Positions 46,955 through 48,063 of a stretch of 64,000 bases of DNA are shown piece after piece. Under the pieces are notes generated by a model. It had not been told where the DNA came from. It made no database searches and saw only the letters and a program-made list of their open reading frames with translations. Source of the stretch: Gammaproteobacteria bacterium (lineage in GTDB: Bacteria > Pseudomonadota > Gammaproteobacteria > CAKMZV01); the NCBI GenBank assembly GCA_965219665.1, contig CBDCOD010000024.1, positions 140,987 through 204,986 on the forward strand, written 5' to 3'. The stretch's first letter is position 1. Every line of letters starts with the position of its first letter. Made by a program: the position numbers and the translations under genes.

Positions 46955-47401
46955 ATGAAACAAGAAATATTTTTAAAGGCTATTTGCGAGATCTCGAGAA
47001 AAGGAGTGCCTACTGGCTTCACAGGTCTAGGTATTATATTAATAAATGAAGATATAGGGTCGCTACCAATTTCACCTCTTCTAAGTGAAGATGGCTTTCA
47101 TACAGAAAATTTAGATGCTAAGGCTGTTGTCAATTTCCTATTTTCCATTTCTAACACTAAAGATAAAAGACATGATGGGTTTCATGTTGTCAGTGGAGAC
47201 TCTCGGCTCTTAAAAATATCACAATACTTCAGCCCCCTAATACCTAAAGGTTTTGATGGAACGGTATTTGATGTGGGTGCGAGATATCGCACAGCTCAAT
47301 ACGGCTCACTATATGAGAATGTAACGTCAATCATCGTTGTTAGCCAAAAGGGAGAAGTTTCTATTGCAAAAAAAGGAGTTGTGGAGTTGCTCGTTACATG
47401 A
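46955..47401 (+). CDS. Stand-alone diadenylate-cyclase (DisA_N/DAC)-like protein
   Basis: HDGF (cf. HDGA), GARYRTA.YGS (cf. GTRHRAA.G.S), IIVVSQKGEVSIAKKG (cf. IVVSEETG.IS.A..G). Confidence 0.8.
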   Translation: MKQEIFLKAICEISRKGVPTGFTGLGIILINEDIGSLPISPLLSEDGFHTENLDAKAVVNFLFSISNTKDKRHDGFHVVSGDSRLLKISQYFSPLIPKGFDGTVFDVGARYRTAQYGSLYENVTSIIVVSQKGEVSIAKKGVVELLVT

Positions 47402-48063
47402 ATCAAACAGAAGTAAAAATATTTGCGACCGGATCAATTGTAATTGGCGCTATCGTTTGGATCATTCCTTTTTTGTTCAGCAGTTTTGAGGTTCTCTCTC
47501 TTGAAAGCCTTAAATTCATCAACTTAGGAATTACGATTACTGGACTATTTTGGTTTTCATATTTTAAGTGGGCCTGGAAATGGGACTATATAAGAAAGCT
47601 TTTGTATCGGCCAAACCTAAACGGAACATGGTTGGGTGAATTTGAATCTGATTGGACAAATGATCAGGGCCAAGTAAACCCACCAAAAAGGTTTGTTCTC
47701 GTTATTCGTCAGCACTGGTTTACTATATCTGTAAGAGCTTTTACAAACATACAAAAAACGGAATCGTACGTGGAAACTCTTATGCTAGATGACAATAAGG
47801 GTACAAAGCTTCTTGCTTACCTATTTTCTGAAAAGCGCTCAAGAACTGGTGAGCATGGCTCAAGACAAGGAGCTGCGGAGTTAGATCTAGTAGAAACAGA
47901 AGTAAATAAGTTAGAAGGTCACTTTTGGACACAAGCAGGGACACGTGGATATATTCGGGTAAAACAAATATCTAGCAATGACCACATGGACTCTTTTGAG
48001 CAAGCAGAGAATAAGTGGTCAGATAGTGCTTGCTGGGAATCAATTCAGGGCAGCAACTGTTAA
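47398..48063 (+). CDS. Cap15-like S-2TMbeta membrane effector
   Basis: Two N-terminal TMs, F.W.WKW, RPNLNGTWLGEFES, IRQ.W..I.V, L.Y, G.A.L, LEG.FWT...TRG.I; ATGA overlap with the DAC gene. Confidence 0.85.
   Translation: MNQTEVKIFATGSIVIGAIVWIIPFLFSSFEVLSLESLKFINLGITITGLFWFSYFKWAWKWDYIRKLLYRPNLNGTWLGEFESDWTNDQGQVNPPKRFVLVIRQHWFTISVRAFTNIQKTESYVETLMLDDNKGTKLLAYLFSEKRSRTGEHGSRQGAAELDLVETEVNKLEGHFWTQAGTRGYIRVKQISSNDHMDSFEQAENKWSDSACWESIQGSNC

Follow-up and report, generated by a model that had tools for sequence, protein, structure and literature searches.

The closest described relatives of the locus analysed here are two-gene anti-phage operons that appeared under two names in two bioRxiv preprints of 11 August 2026. 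Ragucci, Haley and Kranzusch name the system Panoptoo and define it by PanS, a ~150-amino-acid (aa) diadenylate cyclase (DAC), and PanE, an S2TM-β effector with two transmembrane (TM) helices and a β-barrel (10.64898/2026.08.10.743927), while Nabhani, Sullivan et al. name it PanDA (PMC13640721). We describe a 1.15-kb cassette in a stretch of 64,000 nucleotides from a Gammaproteobacteria bacterium (contig CBDCOD010000024.1), the whole of which is called the window and provides all coordinates below unless another locus is named. The cassette consists of panS (ORF1, the first open reading frame; 46955..47401, + strand) and panE (ORF2, 47398..48063, + strand), and we assign a probability of roughly 0.85 to its being an intact member of the Panoptoo/PanDA family of anti-phage guards. 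A preliminary description of this DNA had presented the pair as a candidate new system; this is superseded, because homologous operons have been published as Panoptoo/PanDA. Full-text literature and system-name searches found no publication of the pairing beyond these two preprints.

Experiments on the homologous operons define the behavior of the family. PanE is toxic when expressed alone, unlike the complete operon, which cells tolerate; a nucleotide was found bound to each of the 11 purified PanS proteins, 3'3'-cyclic UMP-AMP (cUA) in nine cases and 3'3'-cyclic di-AMP (c-di-AMP) in two; co-expression of Acb4 from SPO1 releases the PanE toxicity; and the 1.5 Å structure of Rhizobium etli PanS (RePanS) with cUA reveals an asymmetric lid (10.64898/2026.08.10.743927). 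Nabhani et al. report that over 90% of minimal-DAC clade members share an operon with a 2TM-β gene, and that ~50% lie no more than 10 genes from a cyclic oligonucleotide-based anti-phage signaling system (CBASS). They also report that an E. coli PanDA operon protects against Bas69 and N4, with escaper mutations located in acb4, that the PanS substitutions D68A and R105A abolish the rescue from PanE, that E. coli PanE (EcPanE) binds c-di-AMP (7.7 µM) and not cUA, and that Acinetobacter PanS (AbPanS) makes c-di-AMP alone (PMC13640721).

Applied to the window, these data suggest the following mechanism. PanS, a DAC without a regulatory module, would dimerise, as is known from solved homologues, and would constantly make a 3'3' cyclic dinucleotide that occupies the β-barrel of PanE and keeps this membrane protein inactive. 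A phage sponge aimed at CBASS-type immunity (Acb4, less so Acb2) would sequester the decoy nucleotide, and PanE deprived of its ligand would permeabilise the inner membrane, causing the infected cell to die before phage release. Three elements of this scheme, namely constant nucleotide production, the relief of PanE toxicity by PanS and the Acb4 trigger, are carried over from the homologues and would hold for the window copy by analogy. The preliminary description had proposed a two-gene cyclic-nucleotide defense using a third synthase class, which agrees with the experiments on homologous operons in both preprints. It had left two mechanisms side by side; the constitutive decoy, as in Panoptes, is favored by the preprints on homologues, and activation by phage, as in CBASS, is disfavored, since the homologues differ from it.

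The identity of both proteins is established by sequence and fold, with E-values of the domain matches far beyond chance. The 148-aa product of panS matches the Pfam DAC domain PF02457 (E=1.6e-8, 34.6 bits against a cut-off of 27) and no other Pfam domain, and falls far below the cut-offs of the curated NCBIfam models CdaA TIGR00159 (21.2 bits, cut-off 188.8) and CdaM (18.3 bits, cut-off 225). Its AlphaFold2 model, built from 20 homologues (predicted local distance difference test, pLDDT, 85.7; predicted template modeling score, pTM, 0.84), is one compact domain spanning all 148 residues, and the predicted DAC fold without TM or regulatory domain was borne out. All best Foldseek matches listed from the PDB are diadenylate cyclases (DacM 7dfx, CdaA and DisA; probability 1.00, template modeling scores 0.59-0.67), and 72 matches have E<=0.001. 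By sequence, the closest solved relative is the PDB entry 37jy, 'Panoptoo PanS synthase' (E=4.2e-15); apart from it, two chains were found at E<=0.01, both DacM, in a PDB set that lacked the E. coli PanS (EcPanS) entries 37TH and 37TG. An ORF of the R. etli plasmid, with residues numbered as in RePanS, is 35% identical to the window PanS (E=1.5e-19).

The key residues of the window PanS are F22, H73-D74-G75-F76-H77, S93, G108-A109-R110-Y111-R112-T113 and S118; the HDG motif noticed at the outset is part of the HDGFH string at residues 73-77. An alignment of 20 close homologues (A1) has F22, HDGFH, G108, R110 and S118 invariant. For a wider comparison, PanS was searched against 1.84 billion cluster representatives, giving 176 matches at E<=1e-3 of which the best 150 were listed; the window and 108 representatives of 125-175 aa form a set of 109 sequences, 41 of 149 having been dropped for length and the 82-aa fragment P0043 lying outside the set. 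D74, G75, F76, G108 and R110 are kept in all 109 sequences, F22 in 108, S118 in 106 and HDGFH in 101. Where homologue lengths were compared, 42 of 43 fell within 139-155 aa, the remaining one being an 82-aa fragment. This pattern mirrors the conservation given for PanDA by Nabhani et al., namely 100% for D68, G69, G103 and R105 and ~94% for HDGFH (PMC13640721). The window PanS has every sequence-level feature of the published synthases that was compared: a DAC domain alone of ~150 aa, the D-G and G-x-R motifs, HDGFH, F22, the serine, and similarity to characterised PanS.

The 221-aa product of panE matches the Pfam domain Cap15_CD_rec PF18153 (E=5.7e-13, 49.7 bits, cut-off 31.2), 17 PADLOC CBASS '2TM' effector models (best 5.9e-39 over residues 1-203) and, by sequence, the Cap15 structure 7n34 (E=6e-4); PADLOC 2.0 (2023) has no model recognising PanS. 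The structural model, computed from seven aligned sequences, is moderately confident (pLDDT 66.5) and shows helices at 3-27 and 35-61, nine β-strands (76-192) and a short helical tail. At E<=0.001 Foldseek returned four matches, of which three are Cap15 chains (7n34/7n35; template modeling score on target 0.74-0.79) and one is a designed β-barrel. The Kyte-Doolittle profile (19-aa window, at least 1.6) supports the first helix alone, through windows starting at residues 5-18, and therefore the second TM helix rests on the model and the full-length PADLOC matches. ORF2 is accordingly a 2TM protein with a Cap15-type barrel, as is the effector of Panoptoo/PanDA, and the Cap15 hallmarks reported for it earlier, RPNLNGTWLGEFES (RPNLNGTW) and LEGHFWT, were both located. 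In the alignment of PanE proteins (A2), T178 and T182 are invariant, with the 4-residue spacing of T183 and T187 in the ligand-residue list of Nabhani et al.; that list (Y183, Y181, T183, T187) is inconsistent as printed (PMC13640721). Two homologous loci carry damaged PanE copies: in locus L003 (894-1562), from a Halothiobacillus metagenome-assembled genome (MAG), there is a stop at codon 5 and a restart at 969, with loss of the first helix, and in L005 (487-978), from an Undibacter MAG, PanE ends after 163 aa. Such damage could be decay or assembly error.

The two genes are joined by an ATGA overlap, in which the panE start codon (47398-47400) shares bases with the panS stop codon (47399-47401), in agreement with the overlap described previously. 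The pair was surveyed in the window and in loci L001-L005, L015 and L016, the plasmid matches H2 and H4 being outside the survey. A PanE homologue overlaps PanS by 4 nt in the window, L001, L002, L003, L004, L015 and L016 (tblastn or blastp); in L005, whose PanS is 35% identical, a shortened 163-aa ORF overlaps PanS and was judged PanE-like by eye alone. Identities to the window are 93% for PanS and 96% for PanE in Algibacillus (L001), 86% (85.8%) and 88% on the conjugative plasmid pSBAL11701 of Shewanella baltica (L015), and 35% and 28% on pRetMIM1e of R. etli (L016). The recurrence of the pair with the same overlap in other genomes and plasmids agrees with the operonic, conserved pairing of Panoptoo/PanDA.

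The distribution of the cassette points to mobility. The closest PanS relatives are scattered over unrelated genera and plasmids, including Shewanella copies of 86-90% identity; four plasmid records carry PanS homologues, three of them predicted to be conjugative and one mobilizable. A search of 50,697 phage records gave no PanS match, and none of 40 relatives searched has PanS. DNA identity to the window cassette is 94.9% in L001, 85.2% in L015, 83.0% in L003, 80.4% in L002 and 76.8% in L004. The homology starts at 46915-46917 in L001, L015, L003 and L002 and at 46944 in L004, and ends at the panE stop codon (48063) in the two closest loci and 6-63 bp past it in the other three; the mobile unit is therefore the two genes plus ~40 bp. 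This short panS leader (46915..46954, + strand), which travels with the cassette as judged by DNA homology, is presumed to contain the ribosome-binding site and may include a weak promoter.

In four of the eight loci examined, PanSE adjoins CBASS genes, annotated or model-supported. L002 has CapV, a DncV-like cyclase, Cap2 and a 151-aa ORF taken for Cap3 by position; L003 and L004 have a cyclase and Cap15 adjoining PanSE; and the CBASS of L016 is annotated. No CBASS lies beside PanSE in the window or in L001. L015 carries, upstream of PanSE (5826-6919), a Cap15-like gene whose product has 25% identity to the window PanE (E=1.5e-17), and a short ORF directly adjoining an IS66 element; the two may represent a CBASS with its cyclase interrupted by IS66.

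The genome of the window (G000; 1.82 Mb, 25 contigs, 95.9% complete) contains one DAC match, panS itself, and one Cap15-like gene, which agrees with the absence of a non-immune DAC from the same genome reported by Nabhani et al. No SMODS (CD-NTase) and no TIR_2 match was found anywhere in it. Eight CBASS-component queries from related loci (four cyclases, one annotated and three model-supported, two phospholipases, one ThiF/E2 and the 151-aa ORF assumed to be Cap3 by position) had no tblastn match in the genome at E<=1e-2. The sole patatin match is a 909-aa frame lying in another part of the genome, and two CapV queries had no match; a SAVED search was blank, as was its control, which matched no genome either. 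A CBASS remnant upstream of panS was also considered and rejected, the sequence there being an insertion sequence (IS) and a genome-specific repeat. Adjacent CBASS, which is frequent and not defining in the preprints, is thus lacking here. The blank searches for SMODS, TIR_2 and CBASS components, taken with the absence of PanS from the 40 relatives, point to a horizontally acquired guard standing alone. This state is compatible with the preprints, in which E. coli MG1655 is protected by the operon on its own.

The cassette lies in a 5.7-kb islet of low GC content (37.5% versus 45.5% and 46.2% in the flanks) between ilvD/tRNA-Arg(CCT) and pepN. The tRNA-Arg(CCT) gene (43273..43348, - strand; ARAGORN) forms the left edge, just right of which the GC content falls from 0.47-0.50 to 0.37-0.41. 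It is followed by a SoFic-type Fic protein (43681..44787, + strand; PADLOC SoFic 1.5e-111; Pfam Fic_N, Fic and SoFic-like_C), which scores 353.6 bits with the NCBIfam SoFic model, under its 550-bit cut-off, and by a stand-alone Swt1-like HEPN protein (45129..45581, + strand; Pfam HEPN_Swt1 2.8e-20). Both may be further defense or toxin genes. An IS3-family element (45570..46803, + strand; orfA 45636-45932, orfB 45959-46789; Pfam HTH_Tnp_1 and rve) ends ~150 bp upstream of panS; its inverted repeats are 31 nt long and 77% complementary, the left one (arm 45570-45600) overlapping the last codons of the HEPN gene. A second full-length copy lies on contig C25 (99.8% identity), C23 and C21 carry incomplete or rearranged ones, and because of these the IS3 element was probably active recently. 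Between it and the cassette, a ~115-bp stretch (46804-46920) recurs at 89-95% identity on C25, C21, C1 and C6, and may be a small genome-specific repeat or an element resembling a miniature inverted-repeat transposable element. The islet, with its SoFic, HEPN and IS3 genes, and the plasmid homologues of the cassette correspond to the defense-island or mobile low-GC context described for Panoptoo/PanDA.

Directly downstream of panE, the islet also contains the orphan ORF3 (48156-49004, + strand), which encodes 282 aa at 30.5% GC, with a longer TTG-start frame from 48030. Searches of Pfam, PADLOC and PHROG gave no match for it, nor was any NCBIfam match significant; its best Atlas score is 0.78, and 5.8 billion proteins yielded only three relatives (95%, 91% and 61% identity). 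ORF3 was considered as a third component and rejected, the cassette DNA homology stopping at panE or at most 63 bp beyond; tblastn with ORF3 found no match in L001-L005. A 73-bp stretch (49127-49199), before and into the pepN start, is repeated on C1 at 95.9% identity. No convincing att-like direct repeat was found flanking the islet. In the same-family genomes G002-G004, where pepN is ~53% identical, none of 12 other window genes queried (ilvD, nuoA and nuoB included) adjoins pepN within loci of ~14.5 kb, and G001 has no pepN match; no insertion-site comparison being possible, the islet boundary therefore rests on GC content, the tRNA gene and gene content. Further along the window, between nuoE and nuoF (55352-57092, + strand), there are a 267-aa Nmad2 protein (3.2e-35) and an Nmad3 split over two frames of 120 aa (profile 1-81) and 180 aa (profile 106-247), a nucleotide-modification-associated pair inserted in the NADH dehydrogenase operon, with Nmad3 apparently frameshifted. 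Among named organisms, Methylophaga has the nearest NuoD relatives, at 82% identity or less.

Compared with the published Panoptoo/PanDA operons, the window copy has the same overlapping two-gene layout, a ~150-aa PanS with HDGFH and G-x-R, a PanE with 2TM and a Cap15-type barrel, a mobile low-GC context and no other DAC found in the genome. It differs in that its PanS, ~35% identical to that of R. etli, belongs to another sub-branch than the crystallised G-G-R-type enzymes, and in having no CBASS found nearby or elsewhere in the genome, whereas adjacency within 10 genes reaches ~50% in PMC13640721. Panoptes (OptS and OptE; PMC12657218), as described by the two preprints, shares the logic of a constitutive decoy that represses a 2TM-β effector of the same family and of phage sponges as the trigger. 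Its synthase OptS is an mCpol (minimal CRISPR polymerase) with a ferredoxin-like fold that makes 2'3'-c-di-AMP, in contrast to the DAC fold found in the window. Type I CBASS with Cap15 (7n34/7n35) shares effector fold and domain order with the window PanE; there the operon encodes a CD-NTase (SMODS), which the window lacks, and the ligand activates the effector, whereas that of the Panoptoo homologues represses it. The window PanE is 27-31% identical to the Cap15 proteins adjoining PanSE in L003 and L004. The DS-2/CBASS-DAC systems likewise use a DAC domain in anti-phage defense; the accessible parts of these earlier 2026 papers describe a large CdaG-type DAC of ~550 aa within a CBASS operon (PMC13092281, PMC13069673), not a PanS/PanE pair, in contrast to the bare DAC with a 2TM-β partner seen here. 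Finally, DisA, CdaA, CdaS and CdaM have the catalytic fold with its D-G and G-x-R motifs in common with the window PanS, and the R-x-R-T of the latter resembles the DisA string T-R-H-R-T; the window PanS differs from them in lacking a TM, helical-spine or regulatory domain, none being found by Pfam or in the AlphaFold2 model, and in being horizontally acquired.

Several observations weigh against an intact guard. The + strand shows no consensus sigma-70 site at 46700-46955, and the cassette is bordered at 46915 by the ~115-bp repeat and the IS3 element; expression of the cassette is therefore putative. In addition, the window PanE reads KLEGHFW, one leucine short of the KLLEGHFW of four chromosomal relatives, while plasmid L015 has KLFEGHFW; on the strength of these relatives the window panE has a one-codon deletion, which lies at 47908-47925 (residues ~171-176), in the loop preceding a conserved strand. 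Two CBASS Cap15 proteins in the PanE alignment are likewise without a residue at this site.

These points bear most directly on an explanation by decay, in which IS activity severed the cassette from its promoter, and perhaps from a CBASS, leaving a silent or unexpressed remnant. The position of a multi-copy IS3 ~150 bp upstream, the genome-specific repeat abutting the cassette, the lack of a consensus promoter upstream on the + strand and the damaged PanE genes in L003 (stop at codon 5) and L005 (truncated ORF) would all suit such a history. It nevertheless appears unlikely, given that both frames are intact, that all conserved catalytic residues are kept, that the conserved ~40-bp leader is retained and that the cassette DNA is 94.9% identical to that of Algibacillus.

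An addiction module of plasmids or islands, with the nucleotide as antitoxin to PanE and stabilisation of a mobile element as the result, is about equally improbable as a full explanation, and a defense role would be compatible with it. The homologues on four plasmids predicted to be conjugative or mobilizable and the restriction of the shared unit to the 1.15-kb two-gene cassette speak for it, as do the company the pair keeps (on the S. baltica plasmid a HigB toxin-antitoxin pair; in L001 genes for a HipA-like toxin and a helix-turn-helix domain protein) and the killing of cells by PanE without PanS in homologues. The difficulty is that both genes would be lost together, so that killing would depend on PanE persisting longer than the nucleotide, a persistence that nothing indicates; moreover, Nabhani et al. 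document both phage protection by homologues and Acb4 escape mutants (PMC13640721), and the adjoining CBASS in L002, L003, L004 and L016 fits a guard role. A bolder extension of the hypothesis on string and product given below, in which the cassette also serves its carrier elements as an addiction module, is less likely than that hypothesis.

Positive signaling of the CBASS type, in which PanS stays silent until infection and its nucleotide then activates PanE, is very unlikely. The membership of PanE in the Cap15 receptor family would allow it, CBASS Cap15 being switched on by its ligand according to the background of both preprints. Against it, PanS lacks any sensor or regulatory domain, the DAC fold taking up all 148 residues, and among homologues PanE is toxic alone and relieved by PanS, which co-purifies with its product from uninfected cells. 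Housekeeping c-di-AMP signaling, with PanS as an ordinary diadenylate cyclase and PanE as a c-di-AMP-regulated membrane protein of osmotic homeostasis, could draw on panS being the sole DAC match in the genome, but is scarcely credible for a gene absent from the 40 relatives, placed in a low-GC islet with IS and defense-type genes, far under the CdaA cut-off and nearest to copies scattered among unrelated genera and plasmids.

Within the guard reading, the nucleotide made by the window copy may be estimated from its active site. The relevant string is G-A-R-Y-R-T in the window, G-G-R-Y-L-A in RePanS, which was crystallised with cUA (10.64898/2026.08.10.743927), and T-R-H-R-T in DisA as derived from residue numbers quoted in the two preprints. 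Positions A109 and T113 were mapped through the R. etli ORF, the numbering of which matches the crystal paper (D71, G72, S90, G107, R108). They are the counterparts of A112 and T116 of AbPanS. Nabhani et al. single out these two residues of AbPanS, which makes c-di-AMP alone, T107/T111 of TmaDisA, and G104/A108 of EcPanS, which is cUA-bound in the crystal (PMC13640721). Residue pairs at 109/113 in the 109 sequences are AT in 29, GA in 25, AA in 20, AS in 12, ST in 12 and others in 11. A FastTree phylogeny of this set places the window within an 11-member clade (support 0.98) in which every sequence has [A/S]-R-x-R-[T/S] and which is nested in a 43-member clade without glycine at 109. The string resembling DisA and AbPanS, taken with this clade, makes us lean slightly to 3'3'-c-di-AMP over 3'3'-cUA as the signal predicted from the window sequence.

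This lean has evidence against it. The nine cUA-bound enzymes among the 11 tested include that of Shewanella algae (10.64898/2026.08.10.743927), which may belong to the clade of the window, whose close relatives include the Shewanella copies of 86-90% identity, and the rule of A/T versus G/A is based on one c-di-AMP-only enzyme and is a hypothesis of the authors of PMC13640721. The two preprints also disagree on the physiological nucleotide in E. coli, their strains being different (Nabhani et al. worked with MS 185-1, Ragucci et al. with ECC-Z). We put forward tentatively, with the odds somewhat against it, that the window sub-branch is distinct and that its DisA-like string, which differs from the G-G-R-x-x-A of the crystallised enzymes associated with cUA, sets the product, with Gly...Ala giving cUA and Ala/Ser...Thr/Ser strict c-di-AMP.

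This work demonstrates that a defense architecture reported independently by two laboratories only in August 2026 can be recognised from raw sequence alone, which is a useful validation. The copy described here is a natural instance of the cassette on its own, since searches of its small genome for CBASS, another DAC and TIR_2-domain genes found none, and the comparison of homologous loci shows that the unit moving between hosts is only two genes plus ~40 bp. If the proposed link between string and product is true, a simple sequence rule would be available for the identity of the Panoptoo signal, and a 1.15-kb cassette standing free in a small genome, with neither CBASS nor another DAC found there, would operate as a strict c-di-AMP guard. 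This residue-level guess on the signal of the window sub-branch bears on the disagreement between the two preprints over cUA and c-di-AMP.

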